A stretch of 64,000 nt of DNA from a bacterium (GTDB taxonomy: Bacteria; Krumholzibacteriota; Krumholzibacteriia; G020349025), in contig JANLSU010000003.1 in NCBI GenBank assembly GCA_031362565.1, positions 40,512-104,511 on the forward strand, in the 5' to 3' direction. Shown in pieces: positions 29,598 to 49,573 of the stretch. Under the pieces are notes generated by a model that saw only the letters and a program-made list of their open reading frames with translations, was not told the DNA's origin and did not search any database. The first letter of the stretch is position 1; each line of letters opens with the position of its first letter. The position numbers and the translations under genes are program-made.

Positions 29598-30362
29598 TTA
29601 TTGCTGGTACAAGCCCTTCACCTGCGACCACGTCTTGCCTTCGACGCCGGTCGCGTTGAGTGTGAGGGCAATGTCGATATTCGAGTACGTCACGCCGGGC
29701 GTGATCTCGACGTTGACGGCGCGGCTCGTGCCGATCGGTTCGCCATCGTCGTGCACCAGGTTGCCGTTCACGTCCATATAGGCGGTCACGAAGTACTCGC
29801 CGCTCTGCAGCGCGAACGATTGGTAGGCCCCAGGCGCCGTCATCGTCGCCGGGATGCCACGCACGTTCAGGAATTCGAGATCCGGTCCCAGATGCGGGAC
29901 GATCCAGATCCGCCCGTGCTGCGGACCGCCGTATGTGACCTTGCCGAGGAGTTCGGCCGCCAAGTTGACCTGCTGCAGCGTGATGTCAACTCCGGTGACA
30001 CTTTGGCCGCCGGACACGACGATGCGCTGCGGCAGCGGGCTCCCGAAGAAGCCCACCGGCTCACCGCGGCTCGGGATGAGATTCGCGTTGATATCACGAT
30101 ACGCGAGCACGAAGTACGTCCCGTCCGACAAACCGTCCACTTCCCAGTGCCCCGCGTTCGAGCGCACATCGCTCGCTGCCAGGGGATCGACGATCCCAAG
30201 GCGAATGACGAACACGTAGTACAGGCCATGTCCGCCGCCACTGTTGATGATGTTGCCGCTCAGCTTCGCCGCATTGGCAGTACCCGCGACGAGCGCGAGC
30301 ATGCAAGCGGCGGCGATGCCCAGGCGGACCCTGCGGCTGCCGCGCATGAAACGATTGTTCAT
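29598..30362 (-). CDS. Secreted protein with two beta-sandwich-like repeats and C-terminal TWxxVKxxY tail
   Basis: Signal peptide ending ANA; internal repeat YFVLAYRDINAN...GEPVG / YFVTAYMDVNGN...GEPIG; ends ATGVEGKTWSQVKGLYQQ. Confidence 0.82.
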   Translation of the reverse strand: MNNRFMRGSRRVRLGIAAACMLALVAGTANAAKLSGNIINSGGGHGLYYVFVIRLGIVDPLAASDVRSNAGHWEVDGLSDGTYFVLAYRDINANLIPSRGEPVGFFGSPLPQRIVVSGGQSVTGVDITLQQVNLAAELLGKVTYGGPQHGRIWIVPHLGPDLEFLNVRGIPATMTAPGAYQSFALQSGEYFVTAYMDVNGNLVHDDGEPIGTSRAVNVEITPGVTYSNIDIALTLNATGVEGKTWSQVKGLYQQ

Positions 30363-30777
30363 CTGTTGCTCCGAACGACATCCAAACAACGACACTCGGC
30401 GACCGAAGCAGCAGCGCTTCGTCGCGAACTCGGCCGCGACATCGACCGTACTGGGGGGCGTTTGCGAAGGAACCTTGCGGGGGGCGGACACTCGTGTGTC
30501 CTTCGCGGATGCGCGAAGTCTACCACTCCACGCGCATTCGCGCTACGGGCAATCCACCAGAAATGTGCGTTCGACATGCCGCACGTGTGTGTGACGCGAT
30601 GCCAATGGCCCGTTTTCGGGGCTTTTTCCCCACTCGGACGCCACATTCACGTCAATTGGTGTGTTACGGTTCGCGGATGGAGCCCGATCACAACGTCCAA
30701 ATGCTGTGGCTGCGCCGAAGCGAAGGCGCGGGGCTCGATCCGGCGCTCCGGCCCGGCGACCGGCTCGAGGAAATCCC

Positions 30778-31272
30778 ATGACGCCGGCGGCCGCGACGAC
30801 GCTCTCCATCCAACACGCAAAGGGGCGGGGCCGCCTCGAATGCGACCAGTGGTTGGCGCGGCCGCGCGACGAACTGTTCCCGTTCTTCGCCGACGCGCAT
30901 AACCTCGAGCGCATCACGCCGCCGTTGGTGCGATTTCGCGTCACCGGCATGAGCACGCCGCAGATCATGGCCGGCACTCTCATTCACTACCGGTTGCGAT
31001 TGCACGGCCTGCCGATCGCGTGGACGAGCCGCATCGATCGCTGGGAACCGCCGCTCCGTTTCGTGGATCTGCAAGTGCGCGGTCCGTACCGGATCTGGCA
31101 TCACACGCATGAATTCGAGCCTGAACGCGGTGGCACCCGCATTCGCGACCGGGTCGACTTCCAACTGCCGCTGCCGTTCTTGCATCACACCCCGGTCGCA
31201 CGCCTCGTCGACGCCGACCTGCGGGAGATTTTCACCTACCGCCAGCGCATCCTCGCCGAACTCTTTGCTTGA
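30778..31272 (+). CDS. SRPBCC family protein
   Basis: FFADAHNLERITPP, FVDLQVRGPY..WHHTHEF, IFTYR. Confidence 0.88.
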   Translation: MTPAAATTLSIQHAKGRGRLECDQWLARPRDELFPFFADAHNLERITPPLVRFRVTGMSTPQIMAGTLIHYRLRLHGLPIAWTSRIDRWEPPLRFVDLQVRGPYRIWHHTHEFEPERGGTRIRDRVDFQLPLPFLHHTPVARLVDADLREIFTYRQRILAELFA

Positions 31273-31387
31273 ACGCCTGGACCGCCCCTTACATTGGGAA
31301 CCCTTTCGCGACCCGGACATTGAGGAACGCAGCACCGATCCGCCAAGGCGCGGCTTCACCCCATCGGGCGAAAGGATCTGCAGTCCC

Positions 31388-31897
31388 ATGTCCCAGGCAA
31401 TTCGGATTCGCATCGGCATCTCGTTGGCCGTCTGGGCCTTTGCGGCCAGCGTCAACGCCCAAACCATGGACAAGAAGACTTTGACTCTGGATGGCGCCAA
31501 GAAAGTGGCCGATGCGGCCGTCATGGAAGCCAAGCGGCTTGCCGCACCAGGCGGCGCGATCGTCGTTGTCGACGACGGCGGGGCGGTCATTCTCGTTCTG
31601 CGGCTCGACAACACGTTCCCCGCGGCAGCCAGTGTCGCGACCGGCAAAGCCCGCACCGCGGCGCAGTTCCGCCGCGCCACGAGCATTTTCGAGGACGCCA
31701 TCAAGAACGGCCGCGTGTCGCTGACCGCGGTGACCGAAATGGTGCCGCTGCAGGGCGGCGTGCCGATTCTCGTCGACGGCCAGGTCGTCGGTGCGGTCGG
31801 CGTCAGTGGCGCCGCATCCGCGCAGCAGGACGAGGACATCGCGAAGGTTGCATCGGTCGCGCTCGGCAGCGGCGAAACCACGACTTCGAAGCGCTGA
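31388..31897 (+). CDS. GlcG/HbpS family heme-binding protein, exported
   Basis: IVVVDDGG, KARTAA, GGVPI, GAVGVSGA, DEDIA; signal peptide. Confidence 0.9.
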   Translation: MSQAIRIRIGISLAVWAFAASVNAQTMDKKTLTLDGAKKVADAAVMEAKRLAAPGGAIVVVDDGGAVILVLRLDNTFPAAASVATGKARTAAQFRRATSIFEDAIKNGRVSLTAVTEMVPLQGGVPILVDGQVVGAVGVSGAASAQQDEDIAKVASVALGSGETTTSKR

Positions 31898-31900
31898 AAG

Positions 31901-33553
31901 GTGATGACGATGCGATTCTTCCGGACTCTTGTGTGTGTCGCACTCACCGCCGCAGCGCCGGCAGCGCCGGTCGCGGCCGCGACGGCGGCCACGGCCCAAG
32001 CTCCGGTGGGTGCACCCAAAGCCACCGTCGATCTCGCGACGGCCAGCGGGGCGCAACTCGTGAACGGCATCTGGCGCTACAGCGACGTGCAGATTGCCGG
32101 CGTCGATTTCCACGCCGCCGGACCCGACAACAAGCCCTCGGGGGCGCCGAATCGCACCGACGATTTCACGCCGCATGCGGGCGGCCTCGGTTTCGATGAC
32201 TCGGCTTGGCAAGTGCTCGACCCGGCAACGCTCGACGCGCGGCGCGCCGGCGGCAAGCTGTGCTTCAACTGGTATCGCATCAACGTCACGCTGCCGGAGC
32301 GCATCGGCACCTTCGATGTCACCGGCGCGACGGTGGTGTTCGAAGTGACCGTCGACGACTACGCCGAGATCTGGGTCGATGGCGAACTGCCGCGTGAACT
32401 CGGCCAAGCGGGCGGCAATCTCGTCGCCGGATGGAACGTGCCCAACCGTGTCGTACTGACGTCCGATGCCAAGCCGGGCCAGCACGTACAGCTTGCCGTC
32501 TTCGGCATCAACGGTCCGATTTCGGACTCGCCCCATAACTACATTTGGGTGCGGAACGCCAAACTGCTCTTCTACAAAGCGCCGCACGCCCTCGTACCGG
32601 TGCCCGTTGCAACCCACATCGAATGGCTCGATCCGGCGCTCGACGCCATCGTGCCGGCCGGAGTCCAGATCGAGAAACTGGCGGAAGGTTTTTCGTTCAT
32701 CGAGGGCCCGATTTGGCGGCCGGACGGCACGCTGCTCTTCAGCGAACCGAACGACAACAAGATTTGGCAATGGACGCCCGGCAACACCCTGTCGCTCTTC
32801 CTGGACAAGAGCGGCTATGACGGCGCCGACATCGCCGCCTACGGCCAGCCGGGTTCGAACGGTTTGACGCTGGACGCCCAAGGCCGCCTGACCATCGACC
32901 AGCATGGCAACCATCGCGTCGTGCGGCTCGAAAAGGACGGCGCACTCACGGTGCTCGCCGACCGCTATGAGGGCAAACGCCTCAACAGTCCCAACGACCT
33001 CGTCTACCGGTCCGACGGCACGCTCTATTTCACCGATCCACCTTTCGGACTGCCCAAGTTCTACGACGATCCGCGGCGCGAGCTCGATTTCTACGGCGTG
33101 TTCGCGCTCGAGAACGGCAAGTTGCGAGTCGTGAGCCGCGACTTCCGCGGTCCGAACGGACTGGCGTTCTCACCCGGCGAGAAATATCTCTACGTTTGCA
33201 ACTGGGACGAGATGAAAAAGGTCGTGATGCGCTACGAAGTGCGCCGCGACGGCGGGCTCGAGCCCGGTACGCTCTTCTACGACATGACGCCGGCGCCCGG
33301 CAGCGAGGCTCTCGACGGCTTGAAGGTCGACCGGCGCGGCAATGTCTATGTATCCGGCCCGGGCGGCGTGTGGATCTTGTCGCCCGAGGGGAAGCACTTG
33401 GGCACTCTCCAAGGACCCGAACTGCCAGCCAACTTTGCCTGGGGCGACGCCGACGGCAAGACCCTCTATATGACGGCCCGCGGCGGCTTGTATCGCGTCC
33501 GGCTCGGCATCGAGGGCATCCGGCCGGAGCCGGAGCAGCAAACCAAGCGCTGA
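31901..33553 (+). CDS. SMP-30/gluconolactonase family protein with N-terminal galactose-binding-like domain
   Basis: EGPIW, GSNGL, NSPND, PNGLAFSP, DGLKVD; N-domain VDDYAEIWVDG; signal peptide. Confidence 0.9.
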   Translation: MMTMRFFRTLVCVALTAAAPAAPVAAATAATAQAPVGAPKATVDLATASGAQLVNGIWRYSDVQIAGVDFHAAGPDNKPSGAPNRTDDFTPHAGGLGFDDSAWQVLDPATLDARRAGGKLCFNWYRINVTLPERIGTFDVTGATVVFEVTVDDYAEIWVDGELPRELGQAGGNLVAGWNVPNRVVLTSDAKPGQHVQLAVFGINGPISDSPHNYIWVRNAKLLFYKAPHALVPVPVATHIEWLDPALDAIVPAGVQIEKLAEGFSFIEGPIWRPDGTLLFSEPNDNKIWQWTPGNTLSLFLDKSGYDGADIAAYGQPGSNGLTLDAQGRLTIDQHGNHRVVRLEKDGALTVLADRYEGKRLNSPNDLVYRSDGTLYFTDPPFGLPKFYDDPRRELDFYGVFALENGKLRVVSRDFRGPNGLAFSPGEKYLYVCNWDEMKKVVMRYEVRRDGGLEPGTLFYDMTPAPGSEALDGLKVDRRGNVYVSGPGGVWILSPEGKHLGTLQGPELPANFAWGDADGKTLYMTARGGLYRVRLGIEGIRPEPEQQTKR

Positions 33554-33735
33554 CCGTCCCGCCCACAGCCGCGCTCCCCTGTCACCCGCAGCGACACCGC
33601 CGGTGAACCCGGGTTGCAGTTTGCTCCTCCGCCGTCGCGCCGGCGCCGCTCCGACGCGGCGTCCGGCGCGGGGCACAGACCCTGCTCGTTTGCGACCTGG
33701 CCCCCCGTCGCCCGCGCCTCCCGGCCGGAGACCCC

Positions 33736-34794
33736 ATGTCGCCCTTTCGAATCCTCGCCGCGGTTTTGGCGGCGCAATGCGCCCGGGCGGGCGCCGCCCT
33801 CGCCGTGCCCTCGCAGTTCTCGGACGCGGCACCGCGTACCGCCCAGATCGACCGGCCGTTCAGCGTTCCATCGACGTTCGCAGCCGGCGGCGCCCCGGGC
33901 GACGACTTCGCGCACGCCTTCCTCATTCCGGACCTGCCGTATGCGGATACCGGCACGACGTGTGGGTTCCAAGACGATGTAACGTCGCCGTGTACATTTC
34001 TCGGCGGGGCGCCTGACGTCGTCTACGTGTACACCCCGCCCGCCGACGCCGTGGTGGATGTCGACGTCTGTGATGTGGCCTTCGACGCCTCGCTGCATGT
34101 CTACGCCGGTCCGGAGTGGAAGCCGGTCGCTTGCAATGACGACGCCTGCGGGCGCGGGGCGCGCATCGCCGGACTCGAACTCCAGGCCGGGGTTGATTAC
34201 TACTTTGTAATCGACGGTTGGAATGGGACCTGTGGCGGCTATCGGCTGGCAATTCTGATCGATCCCGTCTTGTGTCAATTGGACACGCCGCCGAACGCGC
34301 GGTACGAGGGCGAGCCGGACTGCCACGCGGGTGTGTACGATGCTTACAATCGGGGTTGCAACGACTACCCCTACTCCTTCACCACCATCGAGTGCGGCGA
34401 TTCGACCGTCGTCGTCGCGGGCACCTACGGCACCTATCGCTACTACGACGAGGATTTCCGCGACACCGACTGGTACCAACTCAACTTGCATCATCCCGGC
34501 CTGTTGGAGTGTTCGGTGCTGGGTGGCGCGCCGACCCAACTGGCTATTTTGGACGGCCGGGAGGGCTGTGAGGGGTGGAGCGCGATCGCCGGGCCGGCCT
34601 TGGGAGAGGCCTGCGAACCCATCGCCTGCCAGGCGGCGCTCGAGCCCGGGACCTATTTCATCTTCGTCGCGACCCGGTGGTATGCCGGAATCCGTTGCGG
34701 GACTCGTTACCTCCTCTCGGTGCGCGGCCACCGCTGCCCGCCGATCGCGGTGCGAACCGCGACGTGGGGCGAGGTCAAGCAACGCTATCGGTGA
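33736..34794 (+). CDS. Cys-rich secreted protein, paralog A, with C-terminal TWGEVKQRYR tail
   Basis: Signal peptide; APDVVY, CNDDACG, YYFVIDGW, EGEP.C, FRDTDWY; collinear with the next gene. Confidence 0.85.
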   Translation: MSPFRILAAVLAAQCARAGAALAVPSQFSDAAPRTAQIDRPFSVPSTFAAGGAPGDDFAHAFLIPDLPYADTGTTCGFQDDVTSPCTFLGGAPDVVYVYTPPADAVVDVDVCDVAFDASLHVYAGPEWKPVACNDDACGRGARIAGLELQAGVDYYFVIDGWNGTCGGYRLAILIDPVLCQLDTPPNARYEGEPDCHAGVYDAYNRGCNDYPYSFTTIECGDSTVVVAGTYGTYRYYDEDFRDTDWYQLNLHHPGLLECSVLGGAPTQLAILDGREGCEGWSAIAGPALGEACEPIACQAALEPGTYFIFVATRWYAGIRCGTRYLLSVRGHRCPPIAVRTATWGEVKQRYR

Positions 34795-35071
34795 GTCGAG
34801 GGGCGCGCGGGCCCGAGCGCGCGAAAAAACCCACCACGAAAAACGGCACCGCGCGGTCCTCGCTGCGATCTGTCCTTGACCCACATGCACGCGGCCCCGT
34901 AGGGTAGAGAAGTAATCTTTAAGTATCCGAAGCGGAAAACCAGGATCGTTCGCGTCCAACCAAGGCGTGGGAAGTTCTGGCATTCCGCCTCTTCGCGGTT
35001 CTCCCCAATTTGCACCCTGCGGGCGAGAGCTGAGTGCCTCACTGCGAAGACCAACAAGGAGCCGCAGCATC

Positions 35072-36136
35072 ATGAAGAAGATCGCTATCTCGCTCACCGC
35101 ATGTCTTTTACTCGCAATGGCCGGCCAGGCCTTTGCGGCGCGCAGCGATTATTTCGGGAAGGCGCAGCCACCCAAGGACGTCAAGAACGGCAAACCACAA
35201 GCAGGCCCGTCACGCTATCCGCAGACCCAGGCCGGCGGCGAGAACTTCGGTAGCGCGACCGTCATTCCGAGCCTGCCCTATTTGGATACCGGCAACACCT
35301 GCGGCAACGTCGATGACGTGTTCCCGCCTTGCGCCTTCGCAGGCCTGTCGACGGCCCCGGACGTGGTGTACGCCTACACCCCGACGACCGACCAGTGCGT
35401 CACCTTGGACATGTGCAACTCCTTCTACGACACGATCCTGCACGTCTACGACCAAGGCTTCAACCTGGTGGATTGCAACGACGACTTCTGTGGCCTGCAG
35501 TCGACGATCGAGAACCTGGTTCTCGTCGGTGGCGTGACGTACTACTTCGTCGTCGACGGCTGGAACCTGTCGTGCGGCGACTATGAACTCGCCATCACCG
35601 AGTGCCCGCCGCCGTGCTCATCGGCGTGCCCCCCCGGCGCGATCTCGGAAGGCGAGCCGCCGTGCTCGACCGACTATGTCGACGCGACCAACGGTGGCTG
35701 CAACTCCACCCCGCCGGTGTTCTCGAACATCGAATGCAACGAACTCGGCGTGGAGATCTGCGGCACGTACGGCACGTACGGCTTCCAAGGCCAGTCCTTC
35801 CGCGACACCGACTGGTACGAGTTCACCTGCGAAACCACCAAGACGGTCAACTTCTGCGTCTGCGGTTCGCAGGCCACGCAGATCGCAATCCTGGACGCGG
35901 GCCAGGGCTGCGGCAACATCACCCTCGTGTGCGGTTCCGTATTCGGCGACCCGGGCCAGCAAGTGTGCTGCACGGCAGTGTTGCCGCCCGGTACCTACTG
36001 GCTGTTCGTCGGCACCGACGGCTTCGACGGCATCCCGTGCGGATCGCCCTACGTGCTGACGTTAGACGGCCTCTCGTGCCCGCCAGTTGCTGCCACGCCG
36101 GCCAGCTGGACGCACATGAAGTCCATCTACCGGTAA
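35072..36136 (+). CDS. Cys-rich secreted protein, paralog B, with C-terminal SWTHMKSIYR tail
   Basis: AAGGAG RBS; signal peptide MKKIAISLTACLLLAMAGQAFA; same motifs as paralog A. Confidence 0.88.
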   Translation: MKKIAISLTACLLLAMAGQAFAARSDYFGKAQPPKDVKNGKPQAGPSRYPQTQAGGENFGSATVIPSLPYLDTGNTCGNVDDVFPPCAFAGLSTAPDVVYAYTPTTDQCVTLDMCNSFYDTILHVYDQGFNLVDCNDDFCGLQSTIENLVLVGGVTYYFVVDGWNLSCGDYELAITECPPPCSSACPPGAISEGEPPCSTDYVDATNGGCNSTPPVFSNIECNELGVEICGTYGTYGFQGQSFRDTDWYEFTCETTKTVNFCVCGSQATQIAILDAGQGCGNITLVCGSVFGDPGQQVCCTAVLPPGTYWLFVGTDGFDGIPCGSPYVLTLDGLSCPPVAATPASWTHMKSIYR

Positions 36137-36207: not shown

Positions 36208-36307
36208 TGACACGTTGCGCTCCCGGCTAGGACGATGCGTTGACCCTGATCGGCGCCCCCGTGGGCGGCGCCGGCCCGTCAGGGGATTGTTCGTGCAAGG
36301 AGGATTC

Positions 36308-36868
36308 ATGCGACGACACTTCGGGCGAACGCTGCTGCTCTGCATGGCAGCAGCGGCGCTCCTCATCCCCGCCGGCGCGCTCGGATTGAGCGTGGGCGTC
36401 GGTGTCTTTGGCGGCGCGAGCATTCCCGTCATTCAAGACGACGCTGCAAGTGGCACGCAATTCGGTGTGCGGGTGCCCGTGCATCCCATCCCGCTTCTGA
36501 CCGTGGAGCCGTTCTACGCCCGGTCGGGGCTCGGTGACGTCACCCAAACATTTGGCGGCATCGAGTACACGCGCTCCGGGTTCGATGTCGACACGTTTGG
36601 CGTCAATGTCGCGTTGGGCGGTGCGGGGCTCGTCGGCGGGCTGCCGTTCTATCCGTATGCCGGCATCATGTCGCAACACTTGAAACGTCCTGGAACCGAC
36701 CGGACCGAGGTTGGCTACGCCGCCGGTCTCGGGCTCGGGTTGTCGGTGCCGATGGGAATCAATGTCACCGCGCGCGGCGAATTCAATCTCATCAAAACCG
36801 GCGAAACGTCGCGCAAGTTCGCCAATGTGACACTGGGTGTCACCAAGACACTCACCTCGTTCCCCTGA
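36308..36868 (+). CDS. Outer-membrane beta-barrel domain protein
   Basis: AGGAGG RBS; signal peptide; about 8 amphipathic strands, PYAG motif. Confidence 0.75.
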   Translation: MRRHFGRTLLLCMAAAALLIPAGALGLSVGVGVFGGASIPVIQDDAASGTQFGVRVPVHPIPLLTVEPFYARSGLGDVTQTFGGIEYTRSGFDVDTFGVNVALGGAGLVGGLPFYPYAGIMSQHLKRPGTDRTEVGYAAGLGLGLSVPMGINVTARGEFNLIKTGETSRKFANVTLGVTKTLTSFP

Positions 36869-36881
36869 AGGGAGGCTGCAA

Positions 36882-37442
36882 ATGCGTATTTCGAAGTCTG
36901 TCTATCGCGCCGCGGCTGTGGCTACCCTGGCCGGAGTGCTGAGTGGAACCGGCTGCTTGTTGACGTCGGGGCAGGTGCTGATTTCGTTCGATCTCACGAA
37001 CCCGATCACCGTGCCCACCGTCACGACTGCGATTCGCGTGCCGGTCGATCTCAACTCGATCGGTGACTACAGCGACCACAAGGGCGATTTGTCGGATCTT
37101 GCCGATCTGGCACTCGTGGGCGATGTTACGAACGGCAACACCGCGACCAGCATCGAGTTCTGGATCACCCCCGGCGCGACGAACCTCGCGGACGCCACCG
37201 CCGTCCGCGCCGACCCCACTGCGATCCAGCTCTGGGGTCCGCTGAGTCTCGGCGTCAACGAGACGCGGCGGATCGATTGGGACGCTTCGGCGGCATTGTT
37301 CACCGGCCGCCAAGCGCTTCTCGACGAGATCAAGGGTGATGGTGCGTTCACGCTGTACGCGCTCGCGTCGTCGACGGCGTTGGCCGCCAACTTCACGATC
37401 AACAACGGCGTGCTCATTCTAGTGCTCGACGCGGGGATTTGA
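36882..37442 (+). CDS. Hypothetical lipoprotein
   Basis: GGAGG RBS; lipobox-like SGTGC; beta-rich. Confidence 0.72.
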   Translation: MRISKSVYRAAAVATLAGVLSGTGCLLTSGQVLISFDLTNPITVPTVTTAIRVPVDLNSIGDYSDHKGDLSDLADLALVGDVTNGNTATSIEFWITPGATNLADATAVRADPTAIQLWGPLSLGVNETRRIDWDASAALFTGRQALLDEIKGDGAFTLYALASSTALAANFTINNGVLILVLDAGI

Positions 37443-37450
37443 TCCACGAC

Positions 37451-38039: not shown

Positions 38040-39533
38040 TCAGGCGCTGGCAAGGGCCTCGCGCGGCGCCGGCGCCTTCGAGCCCGCGCGGTCGAGGATC
38101 GCCTTGAACTCGCTGCGATTCGGCGCCTTGTTGAGCGCTTCGTCCGGATCGACAGCGCCGCTCTTGACGATCTCGAGAAGGGCGTCGTTCATCGTCACCA
38201 TGCCGAGGGCTCGGCCGGTCTGCATCATGCTCGCGATCTGGAACGTTTTGCCCTCGCGGATGAGGTTGCTGATCGCCGGCGTGACAATGAGGATTTCCTG
38301 CGCCGCGACCCGCCCGCCACCTTTTTTCTTGAGCAGCATCTGGGCGACGACGCCGCGCAGGCTCTCCGACAGCATGGTGCGGATCTGCGCCTGCCGGTCG
38401 GTCGGGAACTGGTCGATGATGCGGTCGACAGCGCCGGCGGCGGTGTTGGTGTGCAGTGTCCCGAACACCAGGTGCCCGGTCTCGGCGGTTTCGATCGCGA
38501 TTGCCACCGTTTCGAGGTCGCGCATCTCGCCCACCAAGACGATGTCCGGATCCTCGCGCAGCGCGGCGCGCAGCGCCTGTTTGAACCCGTCCGTGTGGTT
38601 GCGCACCTCACGTTGGTTCACGAGGCATTTCTTGCTCGCATACACGAACTCGATCGGATCCTCGATCGTGATGACGTGCGCCGACCGGGTGCTGTTTACG
38701 TAGTCGATCATCGCCGCGAGTGTAGTCGACTTCCCAGAACCCGTCGGGCCGGTCACCAACACGAGACCCTTCTGGAGGTTGCAGAGCTCCAGGACCGCCT
38801 TCGGCAACCCCAGTTCTTGCGCTGTCGGAATCTTGCTCGGAATCACCCGAAACACCGCTCCGACACCGCGCCGGTCCACGAAGAGGTTGGATCGAAAGCG
38901 TGCAACGTTGGCAATTTCGTACGAAAAATCGGTGTCGTGATGCGCCGCGAACTCGTCGCGATTGAGCTCCGGCGTGATCTCGAGGAGCATCTCACGCAGC
39001 GTGTCGTTGTCGAGCGGCGTGGTCTCGCCAAGTGCCACCATCTCGCCGTCCTTGCGGAAGAGCGGCGGGTTGCCCACCGAAAGATGCAGGTCGGAGCATT
39101 TCTCTTGGATCATCTTCTGAAACAGCGCGTCAATGCGCGGCCGGTTGCCCGCGGCGCGTGGCGCCATGGATGAAGCAATTTTCGGCGCGGCCGGCACCGG
39201 CATTGCCGCAACGGGCGCGGCAGACGGCGCCACCCCTTGCAGCCGGACTTCGACCTGCATGGTGGCACTCGTGCCGCGGACCCGGACCGTCACGCGGCCG
39301 ACCGGTGCGTCGTAGAGAAATTCGCGTCCAGTGGCGGTAGAGACGATTTGGGTCGTGTCGACCGGCAGGATTTCCTGCACGAGTTCCTGGACCTGTGCCG
39401 CGGTGACCGGCTGCGCCGATGCCGGGCGCCGTTGATCGCCGGCGAGCAGAGCCACGCGTTCGTTGGCACTGAACACGACGCCGTCGGAAGGATACTTCGA
39501 CAGCAACGCCAAGAATTTGTCGATTTGAGCCAC
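38040..39533 (-). CDS. pilT: PilT/PilU type IV pilus retraction ATPase with an extra N-terminal domain
   Basis: SDLHL, GPTGSGKST, TIEDPIE, LREDPD, GEMRD, GHLVFGTLHT, ISNLIRE, GMVT. GTG 39533 with GGAGG RBS. Confidence 0.93.
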   Translation of the reverse strand: MAQIDKFLALLSKYPSDGVVFSANERVALLAGDQRRPASAQPVTAAQVQELVQEILPVDTTQIVSTATGREFLYDAPVGRVTVRVRGTSATMQVEVRLQGVAPSAAPVAAMPVPAAPKIASSMAPRAAGNRPRIDALFQKMIQEKCSDLHLSVGNPPLFRKDGEMVALGETTPLDNDTLREMLLEITPELNRDEFAAHHDTDFSYEIANVARFRSNLFVDRRGVGAVFRVIPSKIPTAQELGLPKAVLELCNLQKGLVLVTGPTGSGKSTTLAAMIDYVNSTRSAHVITIEDPIEFVYASKKCLVNQREVRNHTDGFKQALRAALREDPDIVLVGEMRDLETVAIAIETAETGHLVFGTLHTNTAAGAVDRIIDQFPTDRQAQIRTMLSESLRGVVAQMLLKKKGGGRVAAQEILIVTPAISNLIREGKTFQIASMMQTGRALGMVTMNDALLEIVKSGAVDPDEALNKAPNRSEFKAILDRAGSKAPAPREALASA

Positions 39534-39553
39534 TGCATGCCCTCCAAGGCCGC

Positions 39554-40033
39554 TCAGTCTTGGTTGATCCAAAGAACGCGGGTCTTGTTGATGAGCCGGG
39601 CATGCTCGCCATCACGCAGGCGGAAGAAGCGCTCGTTGTTGTTCAAGAAGTCTTGCACGCGCCGCTGCCCCTCCGGCATCACGTACGCGACATCACCCGC
39701 CAGGATCGAGCCGTCTTCCAATGACACTTCGATATGGCGGTGCGTTTGCTGCTGGATGGCAATATCCAGGAGCAGCATTTCATCCTCGGTGTATTCCAGT
39801 TCGGCCGGCACTGAGACCATGGTAATGGCATCGAGATTGAGGAACACGAGCGAGTCGCGTTCGAGCACCGGAAGAAAGCGCCGGCTGCCGTTCAGGACGT
39901 CGATCGGGCGTTCGTGGCCCGAATGCGTCTCGGCGCGTTCACTCAGGAACATGCTCACTTCGCGCGTGCGGCGCCCCGTGAGCGCAACCTGGGCGTTGAT
40001 ACGCACCCGTGGAACTCGAAACACCTCAGTCAT
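39554..40033 (-). CDS. Conserved hypothetical protein (DUF6812-like), copy 1
   Basis: 159 aa, two-fold internal repeat (R..D.LN...F). Paralog of 41710-42189. Family name from recall. Confidence 0.8.
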   Translation of the reverse strand: MTEVFRVPRVRINAQVALTGRRTREVSMFLSERAETHSGHERPIDVLNGSRRFLPVLERDSLVFLNLDAITMVSVPAELEYTEDEMLLLDIAIQQQTHRHIEVSLEDGSILAGDVAYVMPEGQRRVQDFLNNNERFFRLRDGEHARLINKTRVLWINQD

Positions 40034-40080
40034 GACCCCGCCTGGAGATGGCTAGTAACGGTTCCCCGTGGCCTCAAACG

Positions 40081-40095
40081 GCAAGATGCGTTCCG
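40081..40095 (-). promoter_or_regulatory. Putative sigma54 promoter
   Basis: CGGAAC-GCATC-TTGC (GG-N10-GC), 48 nt upstream of the start; conserved at 42244. Confidence 0.6.
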
Positions 40096-40184
40096 GTTCT
40101 GCGGCGAACGTACGCACGAGGTGTGATCGTTCCCCAGAGGCGCGATCGCGGGCTCGAGTCTGGAACGCGGGGCTCAAATCTCGT

Positions 40185-41657
40185 TCAACTGCAGTAGGTC
40201 ACCCAGAGCGAAATGAGTAGTACCCCTGCCAGATCCAGTAGCACGCCATAGCGCACCATGTCACGGATTCGTACGTGGCCGGTGGCATAAACCAGAGCAT
40301 TGGGCGGGGTGGAAACCGGCAGCATGAATCCGAAGGAGCAGGCCACCGTGGCGGCGATCGCCGGCTTCACCGGATCCATGTCGGCCGCCTGCGCCAGAGC
40401 CAGCACCACCGGCACCACCAAGGTGGCGCTCGCAGTGTTGCTCGTCACCTCGCTCACCGCGACCGCCATGAGCGTCGATGCAAGCACGATCCCGAGCGTC
40501 CCGTGCAGCGGCATGACGGAGAAAATGCCCTCACCCAACGCGCGCGCCAGTCCAGTGTCGAACATGAGGCCGCCGAGCGACAGGCCACCGCCGAAGAGCA
40601 GCAACGTCGACCAATCGATGCGCTGCAGCACATCGACAGCCAGAATGCGCGGAGCGCGTTCCGTTTCCGCAGCCAGGCGGCGCCGCGCCGGCAGCAGGAA
40701 CAACGCGAGCCCGCCGAGGAGCGGTACGCAGGTTTCCGGCAAGCGCGCCGTCCATTCTTGCAGCCACGTTGCCTCTCGCAGGCGGGTTGCCTGCAGGATT
40801 CCCGGCAGGATCCAACAGACGATCACAGTTCCATAGAGCGGCAGCAGAATTTTTTCGGCCAGCGACCAGGGCCCAAGTGATTCGCTGTCCGGCGCCACGG
40901 CCGCTTGATCCGCCGCGCTGTGGCGTTCGTTGCGCCCGATGAAATGAAACCAGGCGGCGGCGAGCGCCGTGAACACGAGCGCGAGCGGCGCGAAGGTCGC
41001 GCACCAGCGCGCGAACGAGACGGTCGCGCCGGTACCGGTCGCCAGCAACCGCAGCCCGATGAGATTCGGTGCGGTGCCGACGGGCGTCGCAATGCCGCCC
41101 AAAGACGGCGCGAAGGCCGCCATCAACAGCAGTCCGGTGAGCCGCCGCCGCCCGACGCGCCCGACGGCCGTGAGCGCCACGGGCAGAATGAGCGCCGTTG
41201 TCGCCGTGTTGTTCACCCACGCTGAAATGCCGCAGCCGATGGCTGCCACGGCCCACAAGAGCCGCGCCGGCTCGCGCCGCACGCGCTCGTGGCGCAACAC
41301 CGAATGCGTCAGACGCGCCTGCAACCCGTGCTCGAACGCCGCCGTAGTCAGCAAGAAGGTACCGAAGAACAAGAAGAGAATCGGATCCCCGAAGCCCGCG
41401 AACGCCAGTTTGGGATCAGCGATGCGTAAGAGCACCGCGAGCGCAGGAATGAGCAGCGATGTCCAAGCGATGGGGACGGCTTCACTCACCCACAGGCCGG
41501 CAGCCACCGTCAGCAGGACGAGAGTGCCGTGGGCGCGCGGTTCGAGGTGCGGAATCGGGACGAGAGCGACGCCGGCGGCGATCGCGGCAACACCCAGCAA
41601 GACCCAGGGGCGAACCGGGGCCGTGGCGCGCGCAGGATCGTTGCCGGTGGAAGTCAT
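40185..41657 (-). CDS. SLC13/DASS family di/tricarboxylate or sulfate symporter
   Basis: WVSEAVP, WVNNTAT, GGIATPVGTAPN, SNTAS, FMLPVSTPPNA. Confidence 0.92.
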   Translation of the reverse strand: MTSTGNDPARATAPVRPWVLLGVAAIAAGVALVPIPHLEPRAHGTLVLLTVAAGLWVSEAVPIAWTSLLIPALAVLLRIADPKLAFAGFGDPILFLFFGTFLLTTAAFEHGLQARLTHSVLRHERVRREPARLLWAVAAIGCGISAWVNNTATTALILPVALTAVGRVGRRRLTGLLLMAAFAPSLGGIATPVGTAPNLIGLRLLATGTGATVSFARWCATFAPLALVFTALAAAWFHFIGRNERHSAADQAAVAPDSESLGPWSLAEKILLPLYGTVIVCWILPGILQATRLREATWLQEWTARLPETCVPLLGGLALFLLPARRRLAAETERAPRILAVDVLQRIDWSTLLLFGGGLSLGGLMFDTGLARALGEGIFSVMPLHGTLGIVLASTLMAVAVSEVTSNTASATLVVPVVLALAQAADMDPVKPAIAATVACSFGFMLPVSTPPNALVYATGHVRIRDMVRYGVLLDLAGVLLISLWVTYCS

Positions 41658-41709
41658 GGCGCGGCATCGTAGCAGGCGTGCCGCGCCAGAGCCAGCGCCG
41701 GAACCGCGG

Positions 41710-42189
41710 CTACTCCTGACGCACCCACAGCACGCGCGCCTTATTCACGAGCCGGGCGTGGTCGCCTTCACGCAACCGGAAGAACCGCTCGGGGGCGTTG
41801 AGGAAGTCTTGAATGCGGCGCTGTCCTTCTGGAAGCACGTAGGCCACGTCGCCCGAGAGAGCCGTTCCATCGTCGAGAACGACCTCGACGCGACGGTCGG
41901 TCTCCTGCTGGCGGGCGATTTCTAGAAGCGACAGTTCGTCGTCGTTGTACTCGGAATCACAGGCCACCGTCACCATCGCGATGGCGTCGAGGCCCAGAAA
42001 GACGAGGGTGTCCCCGTCCAGCGCCGGCAAGAATGTGCGCTCGGCGTTCAGCACGTCGCTCGGCCGTTCGTGCCCCGAGTGCAGTTGCGAGTACTCACTC
42101 AAGAACAAGCTTACTTCGCGCAACCGGCGCCCGGCCAGATGCACTTGAGCGCGGACGCGGAGGCGTGGGACGCGAAAAACTTCGGTCAC
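41710..42189 (-). CDS. Conserved hypothetical protein (DUF6812-like), copy 2
   Basis: 159 aa, gap-free alignment to copy 1 (TEVFRVPR, HSGHERP, GDVAYV.PEGQRR, ERFFRLR). Confidence 0.8.
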   Translation of the reverse strand: MTEVFRVPRLRVRAQVHLAGRRLREVSLFLSEYSQLHSGHERPSDVLNAERTFLPALDGDTLVFLGLDAIAMVTVACDSEYNDDELSLLEIARQQETDRRVEVVLDDGTALSGDVAYVLPEGQRRIQDFLNAPERFFRLREGDHARLVNKARVLWVRQE

Positions 42190-43806: not shown

Positions 43807-43814
43807 AGCTCAAG

Positions 43815-44897
43815 CTACTTCGCGGGTGTTTCCGGCGCCTCGACCCAATCGGCCAGGTACAGGTTCGTATCGCCGCGCACCGCGGAGTGCCGGTTGCTCG
43901 CGAAAACGAGCCGCGCGCCATCGGGGCTGAACATCGGGAACCCGTCGAACGTCGGATCGAAGGTGATTTGCTCGAGCCCCGTGCCGTCGGTGCGCACCCG
44001 CCAGAGGTCGAAGTTCCGCCCCTTCGGATCGCCGACATTCGAGGCGAAGATGACCCAGCGGTCGTCGGGCGAAAAATACGGGCAGAAGTTGGCGGCGCCG
44101 TTGAACGTCAGTTGGCGGACGTTCTTGCCGGCGGCATCCGCCGTGTAGATTTCGAGCTGCGTCGGGCGAATCGTGTCGATCTTCAAAAGGTCGAGATACT
44201 GCTGCTTCTCCGCGTCGTTCTTCGGACGTGATGCCCGCCAGACGATCTGCTTGCCGTCGTGCGAAAAGAACGCCCCGCCGTCGTATCCGACTTCGTGCGT
44301 AATGCGCTGCACGTCGCTGCCGTCGGGCCGCATCGTGTACAGATCCAGATCGTTGTCGCGGAGCGACGTGAAAATAACCCGCTGGCCATCGACCGAGCAC
44401 GTGGCCTCGGCATCATAGCCATCGTGATTGGTGAGCCGGCGCAGGTCGCTGCCGTCGGCGCGCGCCGAGAAGATCTCGAACGTGTGGTACAGCTTCCACA
44501 CGTAGCCCTGCGAAAAATCGGCGGGCGGCGGACAAGCCGCATCGGCCCAGTGCGTCGAGGCATACAGGATGCGATCGGTGTTGGGGATGAAGTACGAACA
44601 AGTCGTCCGGCCCTTGCCCGTCGACACCAGCTTTGTCTCGCCGGTCGTGACATTCAGTGTGAAGATCTGGTCACATTGGAAATCGCCGCGCTTCGACTGC
44701 AGAATGAGCCGCGTCCCGTCCGGCGCCCAGTAGCCTTCGGCGTTTTCGCCCCCGAACGTCAACTGCCGAACATTGCGCAAATGCACCTCACGCCCGTCCC
44801 GTAACGAATCGGCGCCGGCACCTTCCGCTCGCGCTGTTGCGGTGGCGGCGAGCGTCACGATCGAAACGAACAGTGCGGCCTTCCAAGACCGGCGCAT
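43815..44897 (-). CDS. TolB-like PD40 beta-propeller, exported
   Basis: QLTFGGENAEGYW, GYDAEAT, GYDGGAFFS, FDGFPMFSPDG. Confidence 0.9.
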   Translation of the reverse strand: MRRSWKAALFVSIVTLAATATARAEGAGADSLRDGREVHLRNVRQLTFGGENAEGYWAPDGTRLILQSKRGDFQCDQIFTLNVTTGETKLVSTGKGRTTCSYFIPNTDRILYASTHWADAACPPPADFSQGYVWKLYHTFEIFSARADGSDLRRLTNHDGYDAEATCSVDGQRVIFTSLRDNDLDLYTMRPDGSDVQRITHEVGYDGGAFFSHDGKQIVWRASRPKNDAEKQQYLDLLKIDTIRPTQLEIYTADAAGKNVRQLTFNGAANFCPYFSPDDRWVIFASNVGDPKGRNFDLWRVRTDGTGLEQITFDPTFDGFPMFSPDGARLVFASNRHSAVRGDTNLYLADWVEAPETPAK

Positions 44898-45090
44898 GCA
44901 GTCCTCCTCAGCCCAGGTGCGCGTCGCGTCAACCCCTAGGGCCCATTGAACGCGACGTCGTGCATGACGTCAAGACGGGCTGGCATTCACTTGCACCGGG
45001 CGCACCGTGCCGCGCATACTGCGCGTTGTGTTGCGTCGCGTCGACGCGACGGTGCGCGACCCCCGCCATGTTCCCGTTTGGAGTTCAAGG

Positions 45091-45990
45091 GTGCGAATTG
45101 CGATCACGGGTGCGAGCGGACTCGTCGGTGCCGCCCTGGTGCGTTTCTGGCGCGCCGCGGGTCACGACGTGGTGGCATTCGTGCGCCGGCCGCGAGCCGC
45201 CGCCGCGACCCACACCGCGCACTGGGATCCGGTGGCGGGCGTCGTCGATGCGGAAGTCCTTGCTGCGAGTCAAGCAGTCGTGCACTTGGCCGGCGAGAAC
45301 ATCGCCGGCCACCGTTGGAATGCGGCCCACAAGGAGCGCGTCCGTTCGAGCCGCGTGCGTGGGACCCAGACACTCGCGGCCGCCATTGCGGCGATCCCGG
45401 GAATTCCACCGGTCTTCGTGTGCGCCTCAGCCACGGGCTTCTACGGTGATCGCGGCGACGACATCTTGACCGAAGCGAGCCCCGCCGGATCCGGATTCTT
45501 GCCGGACGTCTGCCGCGCTTGGGAAGAAGCGGCACAACCGGCACGCGACCGCGGCGCGCGGGTCGTCGCGGTGCGAACGGGGCTCGTCCTGGCGCGCGAA
45601 GGCGGGGCGCTCAGCAAGATGCTGCTGCCCTTCCGGCTCGGACTCGGCGCCCGCTTCGGCACCGGGCGCCAATGGATGAGCTGGATCACACTCGAGGATC
45701 TGGTATTGGTGTTCGACCGCGCACTGCACGATGACACGCTGCACGGCGCCGTGAATGGCGTCGCACCGGCGCCGGTTCGCAATGCCGAGTTCACGGCGGC
45801 CCTGGCGCGAGCCCTGCATCGTCCGGCGTTTCTGCAAGTGCCGGCCACGCTCCTTCAACTCGCGCTCGGCGAAATGGCCCAGCCGTTGCTGCTCGCGAGT
45901 GCGCGCGTCGTGCCGGCCCGGCTCGAGGCCGCTGGACACCGTTTCCGCTCGGCAGTTCTTCCCGATGCGTTGCGGGCGGTGTTGCAATGA
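45091..45990 (+). CDS. TIGR01777/YfcH-type NAD-dependent epimerase-like protein
   Basis: ITGASGLVG, HLAGENIA..RW, SATGFYG, GTGRQWMSWI. GTG 45091 with GGAG RBS. Confidence 0.92.
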   Translation: MRIAITGASGLVGAALVRFWRAAGHDVVAFVRRPRAAAATHTAHWDPVAGVVDAEVLAASQAVVHLAGENIAGHRWNAAHKERVRSSRVRGTQTLAAAIAAIPGIPPVFVCASATGFYGDRGDDILTEASPAGSGFLPDVCRAWEEAAQPARDRGARVVAVRTGLVLAREGGALSKMLLPFRLGLGARFGTGRQWMSWITLEDLVLVFDRALHDDTLHGAVNGVAPAPVRNAEFTAALARALHRPAFLQVPATLLQLALGEMAQPLLLASARVVPARLEAAGHRFRSAVLPDALRAVLQ

Positions 45991-46943
45991 GCCCGAAGCC
46001 GCTGCGCTTGGGAGTTTCGGCGTGCCTGCTCGGACAGAAGGTCCGGTTCGATGGCGGCCACAAGCACGACAACTACGTTACCGACGTGCTCGCCCGCTGG
46101 TTCGAACTCGTCCCGATGTGTCCCGAAATGGACATCGGCCTCGGAACCCCGCGCGAGTCTTTACGGCTCGTGCGATCTGGAGCGGAGATTCGTCTCGTTG
46201 CCCCCAAGAGCGGCACGGACGTCACCACCGCGATGCAAACCTATGCCGACAAGCGCGCCCGCAGCATCGCCCGCCAACAACTGTGCGGCTTCGTTCTCAA
46301 GAAGGATTCGCCGAGCTGCGGGCTGGAGCGCGTGCGGGTGTATGGCAATGAAGGCGTGCCGGCACGCGACGGGCGTGGCCTGTTCGCCGTCGCCCTGGTG
46401 CGCGACAACCCGGCCCTTCCCGCCGAAGAAGAAGGCCGCTTGAACGATCCGCGCTTGCGCGAGAATTTCTTGACCCGGGTGTTCGCGTACAGCCGCTGGC
46501 TGGCACTCGAGCACGACGGCCTGACGCGCGCCAAGTTGTTCCGCTTCCACGAGCACCACAAGTATGTGCTCATGGCCCACAGTCAGACTGGGCTCCGCAC
46601 GCTCGGGAACTTGCTGGGGTCCGCCGCCAAGAAGACCGACCTGAAGGCACTCGCGGCACGCTATTTGGAGCAATTCACCGTCATCATGCAACGGGTGCCG
46701 AATCCCAAGAACCACACGAACGTGCTGCAGCACGTCGCCGGCTACGTGACCGAACATCTCGACGCCGCCGATCGCGCCGAACTGGCGCAGACGATCGAGG
46801 CCTACCGGCTGGGACATCTGCCGCTCATCGTGCCGGTGACGCTCGTGCGCCACTATGTGCGCAAATTCGAAGTCGGTTATTTGCTCGACCAGGTCTATTT
46901 GAGCCCGCATCCGCACGAGCTGATGCTGCTCAATCACGTGTAA
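45987..46943 (+). CDS. YbgA family (DUF523 + DUF1722) protein
   Basis: GVSACLLG..VRFDGGHK, CPE, SPSCG, EEEGRLND, YL.PHP.ELML.NHV. Confidence 0.92.
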   Translation: MSPKPLRLGVSACLLGQKVRFDGGHKHDNYVTDVLARWFELVPMCPEMDIGLGTPRESLRLVRSGAEIRLVAPKSGTDVTTAMQTYADKRARSIARQQLCGFVLKKDSPSCGLERVRVYGNEGVPARDGRGLFAVALVRDNPALPAEEEGRLNDPRLRENFLTRVFAYSRWLALEHDGLTRAKLFRFHEHHKYVLMAHSQTGLRTLGNLLGSAAKKTDLKALAARYLEQFTVIMQRVPNPKNHTNVLQHVAGYVTEHLDAADRAELAQTIEAYRLGHLPLIVPVTLVRHYVRKFEVGYLLDQVYLSPHPHELMLLNHV

Positions 46944-46952
46944 GGCGGAAAC

Positions 46953-47939
46953 GTGGCCCGCGAGAAGATCGGCATCCTGCTGACCAATCTCGGCAGCCCC
47001 GATGCGCCGACCGCCGGAGCATTGCGGCGCTACTTGGCCGAGTTCTTGAGCGACCGGCGCGTCGTCGACTTGCCGCGCATCGTGTGGTTGCCGCTTTTGT
47101 ACGGCGTCATCTTGAACGTCCGCCCGGCGCGCTCGGCGAAACTGTACAAGCGGATCTGGTCCCCGGAGGGCGCACCGCTCGTCGTCATCGCGCGGCGCCA
47201 GGTGGCGGCGGTCGAGCAAGCGCTCCGCACCCGCATCGATCCCGTGCCGGACGTGGCCCTGGGAATGCGCTACGGCAATCCCTCGATCCGGTCGGGCTTG
47301 GAGTCGCTGCGCGACCGTGGCTGCACGCGCATGCTCGTCTTCCCGCTCTACCCCCAGTACTTCTCGGGCATCACGGGGTCGACCTTCGATGCGGTCGCCG
47401 ACACGCTGAAGAAATGGCGCTGCGTGCCGGCGCTCCGCATGCTCGGCGACTACCATGACAACGAGGCATACATCGCGGCGCTGGCGCGAAGCGTGCGTGA
47501 CGTGTGGCAGCGCGACGGCAAGCCGGACCGGACGATCTTTTCGTTTCATGGCATTCCGGTGCGCTATGAAGCGGCGGGCGATCCGTACGCGCGCCAGTGT
47601 CAACGCACGGCCGGGCTTTTGGCCGTGGCACTCGAACTTCCCTACGAGAGCTGGTTGTTGACGTTTCAGTCGCGTTTCGGACGCGAGAAATGGCTCGAGC
47701 CCTACACCGACACGACGTTGCGGACTTGGGCCGGCGAGGGCGTCCGGCGGGTCGATGTGCTCTGCCCCGGTTTCTCGGCCGATTGCCTCGAAACCCTCGA
47801 AGAGATCGCCATCCTGAACCGCGACATCTTCATGGCGGCGGGCGGCGAACGCTTGCGGTACCTGCCGGCGCTCAACGACCGGCCCGACCACATCGCCGCA
47901 CTGACCGATCTCATCGTCCAAAATCTCGCCGGTTGGTGA
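46953..47939 (+). CDS. hemH: Ferrochelatase
   Basis: LLTNLGSP, FLSD.RVV, MRYGNPS, PLYPQY, FSFHGIP, FQSRFG..WLEP, FSADCLETLEEI. Confidence 0.97.
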   Translation: MAREKIGILLTNLGSPDAPTAGALRRYLAEFLSDRRVVDLPRIVWLPLLYGVILNVRPARSAKLYKRIWSPEGAPLVVIARRQVAAVEQALRTRIDPVPDVALGMRYGNPSIRSGLESLRDRGCTRMLVFPLYPQYFSGITGSTFDAVADTLKKWRCVPALRMLGDYHDNEAYIAALARSVRDVWQRDGKPDRTIFSFHGIPVRYEAAGDPYARQCQRTAGLLAVALELPYESWLLTFQSRFGREKWLEPYTDTTLRTWAGEGVRRVDVLCPGFSADCLETLEEIAILNRDIFMAAGGERLRYLPALNDRPDHIAALTDLIVQNLAGW

Positions 47940-48016
47940 ATCGCGGCATGGGCGGCCCGGCGCGCGGCGCGTTATACTTGGGGTGGCCGCCGTGCCGATC
48001 CCCGTCCGGAGGGTCC

Positions 48017-49573
48017 GTGTTCCAGCGCCTCGTTTTTGGGTTCGCACTCGCACTCCTGCTGCGGCCGGAGGCTGCCCTTGGCACGTCCAAGGTGCAGCCA
48101 CGCCTGGCGCGTGTCTTGACACAGACGCCACCCGCGGCGCCGATTGCCACTTGGGTCTTTTTCACCGACAAGGGCCCAGTCCAAAAGGCCACGCCTGACG
48201 ACGTCGTGACACCGCGCTCGTTGCGGCGGCGCGCCAAGGTGCGGCCGGCGAATGCCCTCGTGGATGCGGCTGACCTGCCGGTGTGTGAAGCCTATGTGGC
48301 GCGAATCGCCGCCCTCGGCGTGCACATTCGCCAGCGCTCGAAGTGGTTCAACGCGGTCAGTGTCGATGCGACCGCCGGGCAGATTCAGGCCCTCCAAGCG
48401 CGGCCCGAAGTGCGGTCCATGGAACTCTTGACGCGCTTCCGGCGTGCCGCTCCCGAGATGACGCCCGCGCCGGTGCCCGAGAAGATCGCGCCGCGTGCTG
48501 GACATGGCCCGCGCTCGAGCGCCGCCCAGCCGCCGACCACGCACACCTTCAACTATGGCAACTCTCTCCCGCAAGTCGCGCTCTCGAACATTCCGGCCCT
48601 GCACGACCGTGGCATCAATGGCCAGGGTGTTCTCGTCGGACATTTCGACAATGGCTATCGCTTGCTGTCACACGAGGCGCTGGCGTCGTTGCATGTCGTT
48701 GGAGCGCACGACTTCGTGGATCACGACGCGGATCCGGCGCCACCCGTCACCGCGCCCGATTTCTTTGGCGCCCACGGCATCGGCACCCTCGGGACCATCG
48801 CCGGCTTCAGGCCGGGCCAGCTCATCGGCCCGGCGTTCGGCGCCGATTTTTTGCTGGCACGCACCGAGAATGACGCAAGCGAAACGCCGCTCGAGGAAGA
48901 CAACTGGGTCGCCGCCATGGAATGGGCGGATAGCTTGGGTGTCGAAGTGACGTCGACATCGCTCGGCTACCTGACGTGGGATGATGCGTTTAGCGGCCAG
49001 AACCTGACCTGGCAAGATTTGAACGGCAACACCGCCATCATGACGCGTGCCGCCGACCATGCGGTGGCACTCGGCATCGTGGTCGTCACAGCGGCCGGCA
49101 ACGAAGGGGCAAGCACGCAGGGACACAACACCCTGCTCGTGCCGGCCGACGGGGACAGTGTCATCACGGCGGGCGGCGTGTGGATTCCGCCGGGCGCCAC
49201 CGAATCCGAACGCTACTTCACGAGTTCAGTGGGGCCGACGACGAGCCTGCCGCCACGCATCAAACCCGACGTCGCGGCCCAAGGCGCCGCGGTATACATC
49301 GCCGGCACCGGCAGCACCACAGCGTACGGTTACTCGGCCGGGACGTCGTTCGCGTGTCCGTTGGTCGCCGGCGTCGCCGCAATGTTGCTCTCCGCCTGCC
49401 CCAGCGCGACTCCGCTCCAAATCCGCGATGCGCTCCGCAGCACCGCCAACCACGCCGCCAATCCGGACAACCAAGTGGGCTGGGGCGTCGTCAACGCCAC
49501 CGCCGCGCTTGCCGCCTTGCAGACACCGGTCACGCCGGTGTCGTTTTCCGACTTGAAGAAACGCTTCCGCTAA
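48017..49573 (+). CDS. Secreted S8 subtilisin-like serine protease with C-terminal SFSDLKKRFR tail
   Basis: Catalytic D (HFDNGY), H (HGIGT), S (GTSFACP); AAGNEG, KPDV. GTG 48017 with GGAGG RBS. Confidence 0.92.
   Translation: MFQRLVFGFALALLLRPEAALGTSKVQPRLARVLTQTPPAAPIATWVFFTDKGPVQKATPDDVVTPRSLRRRAKVRPANALVDAADLPVCEAYVARIAALGVHIRQRSKWFNAVSVDATAGQIQALQARPEVRSMELLTRFRRAAPEMTPAPVPEKIAPRAGHGPRSSAAQPPTTHTFNYGNSLPQVALSNIPALHDRGINGQGVLVGHFDNGYRLLSHEALASLHVVGAHDFVDHDADPAPPVTAPDFFGAHGIGTLGTIAGFRPGQLIGPAFGADFLLARTENDASETPLEEDNWVAAMEWADSLGVEVTSTSLGYLTWDDAFSGQNLTWQDLNGNTAIMTRAADHAVALGIVVVTAAGNEGASTQGHNTLLVPADGDSVITAGGVWIPPGATESERYFTSSVGPTTSLPPRIKPDVAAQGAAVYIAGTGSTTAYGYSAGTSFACPLVAGVAAMLLSACPSATPLQIRDALRSTANHAANPDNQVGWGVVNATAALAALQTPVTPVSFSDLKKRFR

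Follow-up and report, generated by a model that had tools for sequence, protein, structure and literature searches.

Type IX secretion system (T9SS) signals have been described as folded domains that are recognised by their shape. Here we describe a tail of about 16 residues that ends four exported proteins encoded in a 64,000-nucleotide stretch of a Krumholzibacteriota genome (assembly GCA_031362565.1, contig JANLSU010000003.1, positions 40,512 to 104,511 of the forward strand; this whole stretch is hereafter called the window, and window positions are counted from its first letter). The tail probably serves as a label, so far undescribed, that addresses proteins to the cell surface, because it sits exactly where related proteins carry the type IX tag, and it most likely works like that system's C-terminal domain (CTD).

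The nearest described counterpart is the type A CTD (TIGR04183/PF18962, with the FlgD_ig form PF13860 in this phylum), which is served by the PorV shuttle and the PorU sortase. Like the tail, it is C-terminal on Sec-exported proteins of many folds; the two occur in the same genomes and at the same junction in paralogs, and the tail shares with it a conserved Lys near the end and, in many copies, is preceded by a small-aliphatic pair that resembles a PorU site. The type A CTD is a 7-stranded beta-sandwich of 67-108 residues (PMC11285876, accessible part), whereas the tail is helical in an AlphaFold model, is found on small cargo only and does not always have the cut motif. Type B (TIGR04131) and type C (ChiA-like) CTDs are alternative signals for one translocon and offer a precedent for several signal classes, as set out in the accessible parts of PMC12618676, PMC10202324 and PMC10515386. 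They need about 100 residues or more. Type B cargo is usually encoded beside its cognate PorP/SprF shuttle, an arrangement not seen for tail genes. Among short signals, LPXTG, PEP-CTERM, IPTL-CTERM, GlyGly-CTERM and MYXO-CTERM are terminal and present in many copies on unrelated exported proteins, as is the tail. However, tripartite signals combine a motif, a transmembrane helix and a basic cluster (bioRxiv 10.1101/2023.06.07.544157, in the part available), and the tail has no transmembrane segment, for which reason an exosortase was also rejected as its reader. The tail thus belongs neither to the type A, B or C CTD families nor to the tripartite CTERM signals.

The preliminary description, which knew of no described mechanism for the tail, had proposed a search for an existing model; 40 of the 128 tails of the genome were scanned and matched no NCBIfam family, and in Pfam gave two chance matches (E 0.07 and 0.12). 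PDB sequences returned nothing for a small tail-bearing protein described below and one chance match for the tail; the ESM Atlas gave no feature match, and its structure matches all fell below threshold. The full-text literature, searched without supplements and most subscription papers, returned no description of the tail, which does not prove its absence from print. The LpxE paper PMC12704123 is, in its accessible part, unrelated to the tail.

A two-part tail on many small exported proteins

The first of the four window proteins is an exported 254-aa protein with two Ig/transthyretin-like repeats and a weak DUF2141 match (29598..30362, minus strand), whose tail of 17 residues plus stop occupies 29598..29651 and scores 25-26 bits with the tail profiles described below. 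Two plus-strand genes encode exported paralogs that are 44% identical: a Cys-rich 352-aa protein with a weak PPC-domain match (33736..34794; tail at 34744..34794, 26-28 bits) and a 354-aa protein (35072..36136; tail at 36086..36136, 23-25 bits). The fourth is an exported S8 (subtilase) protease of 518 aa with a GTG start (48017..49573, plus strand), whose homologs carry a FlgD-type T9SS CTD at the same junction. Its tail (49523..49573), which like those of the paralogs has 16 residues plus stop, is the weakest and degenerate, with scores of 12.3 and 9.1 bits (9-12 bits), F in place of W and P in place of the small residue. Start codons of all four genes were picked from their signal peptides. 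The four C-termini first reported are thus present in the sequence, three of them scoring 23-28 bits, and they were rightly said to sit on three unrelated body types: three and not four, since the genes at 33736 and 35072 are paralogs.

The tail is a free-standing element of two parts, the first reading x-[GAS]-V-E-x-x-[TS] and the second W-[SG]-x-[VI]-K-x-L-[YF]-R-stop. Numbering from W as 0, the 127 tails of a second-round profile have in their upstream half V/T at -7, A/G/S at -6 (86%), V at -5 (71%), E/Q at -4 and T/S at -1. Their helix half reads W (98%), S/G, x, V/I, K at +4 (97%), x, L (76%), Y/F (99%) and R (70%), and the stop comes one residue past the aromatic in 84 tails. The amphipathic helix proposed at the outset finds support in the helical hydrophobic moment of the last ten residues, 0.47 against 0.34 after shuffling with a net charge of +1.8, and in an AlphaFold helix in an Ignavibacteria protein. 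That the tail has no transmembrane helix also proved correct: a hydropathy of at least 1.6 over a 19-residue window was reached within the last 40 residues in only one of 128 tails.

We translated the 5.4-Mb genome in six frames and searched its 50,273 stop-to-stop segments. A regular expression taken from the originally proposed consensus matched 76 segments at their end, 9 at 5-13 residues from the end and 4 deeper, whereas shuffling the last 30 residues of all segments yielded 4 matches in 20 rounds (0.2 per round). A profile built from the 76 tails gave 128 matches at 10 bits or more, of which 126 were terminal, that is, within 15 residues of the stop; this result is circular for the 76 seeds. 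The second-round profile gave 129 matches at the same threshold, 127 of them terminal, and the union of the rounds amounts to 128 tails in the genome. With a profile made only from 120 tails of other genomes, all 32 matches at 12 bits or more were terminal; it puts just one of the four window tails above 10 bits, because it is pinned to one subtype. The tail-bearing bodies form 77 BLAST families. The occurrence of the tail is therefore not due to chance, the strictly C-terminal position claimed for it holds, and far from being limited to a few proteins it recurs across the genome and, with the profile, in 126 of 128 genomes of the phylum. Matching hit tables make Krumholzibacteriota the most likely phylum, while IF-2 identity hardly discriminated (56% against 57%).

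An association with signal peptides, also part of the preliminary description, is borne out by a heuristic call (not SignalP), which found them in 104/127 tail proteins and 175/215 CTD proteins, as compared with 327 among 1,066 long segments used as controls. At least one of the 23 tail proteins without a call is a selenoprotein split at TGA. Thirteen of 20 scanned bodies had Pfam matches, to CHRD, NHL, PD40 and Kelch propellers, beta-helices, a phosphoesterase, an alpha/beta hydrolase, ice-binding-like domains and DUFs, so that the bodies are as unrelated as had been supposed. Only one of 128 tail segments exceeds 600 aa, as against 132 of 215 CTD bodies, and the tail seems to be reserved for small cargo.

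Exchange of the tail with the type IX domain

The T9SS genes whose presence was to be checked are in the genome: SprA and seven PorV-family genes score over cut-off, two PorU over cut-off adjoin the main PorV, and there are 13 C25 domains. The two PorU genes are near-identical and lie in tandem upstream of PorV, followed by a gene for an M6-like CTD protein (C85:54667-64443). None of the 215 terminal FlgD-type CTDs of the genome is on a tail protein, and none of the 227 CTD matches overall overlaps a tail.

The two elements alternate on related bodies. A CTD-bearing homolog exists in the genome for 34 of 126 tail proteins, and five of the 126, the window S8 protease and a U-x-x-C-type redoxin among them, align with it up to the junction; when the comparison was rerun without the S8 protease, members of 4 of the 77 families did so. 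The window S8 protease is 53% identical over about 510 residues to a protein (C126:66792-64978) that runs on into a CTD. We fetched 30 loci with S8 homologs, of which 27 were readable and 15 of these ran off the locus; all 11 other complete homologs have a CTD as their last domain, and in 9 it is attached at the same junction through T-[DAG]-V-like linkers. Together with the anatomy of the tail, these junctions agree with the early remark that the segment before the tail resembles linkers before T9SS CTDs. Two exported redoxin paralogs with an in-frame TGA (U-x-x-C), at C75:34186-33824 (minus strand) and C11:61381-62052 (plus strand), are split in the same manner, one ending in the tail and the other in a CTD. 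In one NHL family, five members have the tail and the sixth, an NHL propeller encoded directly upstream of an exosortase-family gene (C36:19118-17373, minus strand), ends in a transmembrane tail that we take to be IPTL-CTERM-like, the only such tail found in the genome. In these exchanges, the tail takes the place of two sorting signals that are already known. It is a feature of Sec-exported proteins, on which tail and CTD exclude each other and take up the same junction.

Alternatively, the tail could be a functionless remnant of truncated CTD proteins, or a chance ending. The window S8 protease fits such a history, as it has a degenerate tail where every complete homolog has retained the CTD. 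On the other hand, a remnant would not be expected in 128 copies on 77 families and in nearly all genomes of the phylum; the helix half has no counterpart at the start of the listed CTDs, the tail is near-invariant in orthologues, and the shuffles produced almost no matches. We regard this explanation as very improbable and as largely refuted for the tail family, while for the S8 copy alone it is possible.

The explanation that we favour, to which we give about an even chance, is that the tail is a miniature, helix-type C-terminal T9SS signal that replaces the Ig-like CTD of about 80 residues on small cargo. The cut site speaks in part for it. In P. gingivalis, PorU sites read X/(GSA)(VLI), and the residues ahead of the cut are polar (PMC4560394 and PMC5445135, accessible parts). 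In this genome, a small-aliphatic pair stands at -6,-5 from W in 89/127 tails, against 2-12/127 at each upstream offset, and [ST]-[GSA]-[VLI] occupies -6 to -4 in 55 of 63 Bacteroidota orthologues.

A conserved carrier and the reach of the tail

A strict DNA pattern for the tail, run over GTDB genomes, matched at least 127 loci, in records titled Eisenbacteria, Krumholzibacteriota, Latescibacterota, Zixibacteria, Ignavibacteria and Kapaibacterium. The carrier in Ignavibacteria is a 130-aa protein with a signal peptide, one Fn3-like domain and the tail, and it has 408 homologs. Its body matches Fn3 and resembles the domain that directly precedes the CTD in three proteins of our genome. AlphaFold models it with a pLDDT of 84.6 and places a helix at residues 123-129 on a loose linker (pLDDT 64-68). 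In 60 Ignavibacteria-type orthologues, conservation is 0.98 in the tail and 0.68 in the body, which together with the near-invariant W and K of the genome's own tails suggests that the tail is read in a sequence-specific manner.

The carrier is mostly single-copy, and its tail is near-invariant across Ignavibacteria and Hymenobacter. It is found in named Hymenobacter species, where all 120 homologs listed for the Hymenobacter search have the tail, and in 14 of 121 genomes of the order of Hymenobacter, one of which has two copies; by record titles it is also in Melioribacter roseus and Rosettibacter primus. Among the matches listed for 201 Bacteroidota genomes, 74 genomes have one match that extends through the tail and others match by the body only, in large proteins. 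A profile search of 1.84 billion representatives gave 41,846 matches, mainly repeats of the common Fn3 body. Three Zixibacteria-type records encode a different small tail protein of 134 aa (L049, L056, L134), whose gene lies between what we presume, from the translations, to be a Rex-like regulator and an anti-sigma-antagonist-like gene.

The helix half also turned up elsewhere. A family of 175-aa polytopic membrane proteins in Flavobacteriaceae, with four transmembrane segments, no assigned function and 729 homologs (L089:2000-2533), ends in W-x-Q-[ILV]-K-D-L-F-R in 111 of the 120 homologs listed, with an acidic helix in place of the upstream motif. The preliminary description had seen the tail on no cytoplasmic or inner-membrane protein of the window; outside this genome, one of the observations that it would have counted against its proposal has thus been made in part. 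Since the helix half can occur outside exported soluble proteins, a plain membrane-binding role is conceivable. The tail would then stay on the protein as an amphipathic helix, bind lipid directly and so hold exported proteins at a membrane face, for instance in the periplasm, and replacement of the CTD would re-route them from secretion. Such a tether would resemble the membrane-targeting helices of MinD and FtsA, which are likewise short, basic and amphipathic at the extreme C-terminus; those helices are uncleaved and belong to cytoplasmic ATPases, whereas the tail is carried by exported proteins and is preceded by an upstream segment that is conserved. The hydrophobic moment and positive charge of the tail, the modelled helix on its loose linker, the Flavobacteriaceae proteins with their bare helix half and the many tails in which the cut motif is missing all suit a tether. 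Yet the near-invariant W and K and the conservation of the carrier tail would exceed what lipid binding usually needs; in this genome, as in the Bacteroidota orthologues, the distance of the PorU-type pair is fixed, and the ice-binding-like, beta-helix, propeller and protease bodies are typical of surface or secreted proteins. We consider a lipid tether unlikely.

Weighing a proposed peptide-sized T9SS signal

If the tail is a miniature T9SS signal, Sec export would come first, and a T9SS component, for which PorV or the lumen of SprA are candidates, would then recognise the folded small protein by the helix face that displays W/K/L/Y. SprA would be the route of the cargo across the outer membrane. 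In tails that keep the small-aliphatic pair, PorU may cut before it, after which a surface anchor would be joined or the cargo released, as with type A; tails with proline in place of the small residue probably stay attached. The tail is probably old, since a single conserved Fn3 protein of small size carries it in much of Bacteroidota sensu lato, and would then have spread to tens to more than 100 proteins in this phylum and its neighbours. More tentatively, and with somewhat less than an even chance of being right, we propose that it defines a fourth, peptide-sized class of T9SS signals, made of a PorU site joined directly to a nine-residue helix, which was kept on one ancestral small protein across Bacteroidota sensu lato and was expanded into the main small-cargo route of uncultured phyla without recognisable GldLM.

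Several observations weigh against a miniature T9SS signal. The CTDs known so far fold into domains, with lengths from about 70 to over 100 residues, and it is an Ig fold that becomes buried in the PorV/SprA site (PMC10994853, PMC11285876 and PMC10202324, accessible parts). The cut motif is not general: among 134 tails from other genomes it occurs in 41, against 48 in a control window, which is no enrichment, and 51 of them have proline at -6, as does the window S8 tail. Even in this genome, 56% of the tails have V just ahead of the putative cut, whereas known P1 residues are polar and the CTD linkers of the genome favour T-D-[VA]. About seven tail proteins are lipoproteins. Tail genes are near CTD genes about as often as chance predicts (41/127, 39.9 expected), and the neighbours of the single-copy carrier are housekeeping genes and not T9SS genes. 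The Flavobacteriaceae membrane proteins share the terminal helix, without the upstream motif, and are no obvious export substrates. SprA was detected in 128/128 genomes of the phylum and in 42/42 further genomes picked for a tail match, which is consistent with the proposal but is no independent correlation, because the genomes are kin; many SprA genomes have no tail, and the co-occurrence is weak evidence. None of 53 tail genomes, this one among them, gave a GldM match over cut-off, as against 12 of 26 others, in a search that could miss divergent motors. Finally, a reader of the tail was not found among neighbour genes and one candidate barrel.

The idea that lipoprotein tails lack the cut motif gave a mixed picture: it is missing from five of the seven, and all five belong to one family. 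This lipoprotein family (C63:16789-20505, C34:26383, C89:14431) is mostly without the upstream small-aliphatic pair, and one paralog has no tail. The 53 genomes without detectable GldM, which come from the phylum, its neighbours and Ignavibacteria-type bacteria, have SprA, PorV and PorU. That the tail occurs only with a motor-less T9SS is ruled out by a Hymenobacter genome with both tail and GldM; Hymenobacter also has a SprA-type T9SS.

The strong sequence specificity of the tail and its restriction to small cargo would also suit a docking peptide for a separate partner. Such a partner could be an outer-membrane receptor or enzyme dedicated to the tail; it could also be T9SS cargo in its own right and act as a scaffold or carrier, so that small proteins hitch-hike on it or are displayed dockerin-style. 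Flavobacterium signal classes use different shuttles (PMC12618676, accessible part), and the NHL family with its exosortase-linked member illustrates that bodies of this kind do exchange the signal of one system for that of another. However, no partner gene recurs beside tail genes in the neighbourhoods read, nor was any tail gene seen in the eight PorV-family neighbourhoods read. An orphan PorV2-like barrel, the sole candidate tested as a dedicated reader, is not distributed as the tail is: on a quick tree, the barrel is present in 36/44 genomes that have the small tail-bearing orthologue and in 15/26 that do not. We think a docking peptide unlikely. The barrel (C70:23954-24967) is single-copy in most FCB-type genomes tested. 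The preliminary description had proposed a separate sorting system; the evidence favours a new signal on the existing T9SS, and no co-distributed new enzyme or translocon was found among neighbour genes and the one candidate barrel.

If the tail is a T9SS signal, a linear signal of 16 residues would change the rule that such signals are folded domains recognised by shape, would explain the placement of tens to more than 100 unannotated proteins per genome in Krumholzibacteriota, Eisenbacteria and Latescibacterota, and could serve as a minimal display tag for engineering. If it is a membrane tether or a docking peptide instead, it would still be an uncatalogued, phylum-wide envelope signal. In either case, the mostly single-copy carrier in named cultured genera (Hymenobacter, Melioribacter roseus, Rosettibacter primus) makes a feature of uncultured lineages accessible to experiment.

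The surroundings of the window genes offer a few further observations. A single-sequence AlphaFold prediction of the S8 protease reached a pLDDT of only 32.7, which makes the model unusable. The protease is flanked by heme biosynthesis genes (46953-47939 and 52056-59944, plus strand), a set comprising a ferrochelatase, a class III aminotransferase, URO-D, a HemN-type radical SAM protein and a flavin oxidase. Directly 3' of the two paralogous tail genes (36215-37442, plus strand) are genes for an outer-membrane beta-barrel (PF13505) and a probable lipoprotein, and on the minus strand, at 38040-42189, a PilT-like ATPase gene (T2SSE) is followed by two paralogous DUF6812-like genes of 159 aa. Elsewhere in the genome, two cassettes (C83:31580-35715 and C83:92597-99545) each combine a TonB-dependent receptor, a secreted protein and a PorV-like barrel.

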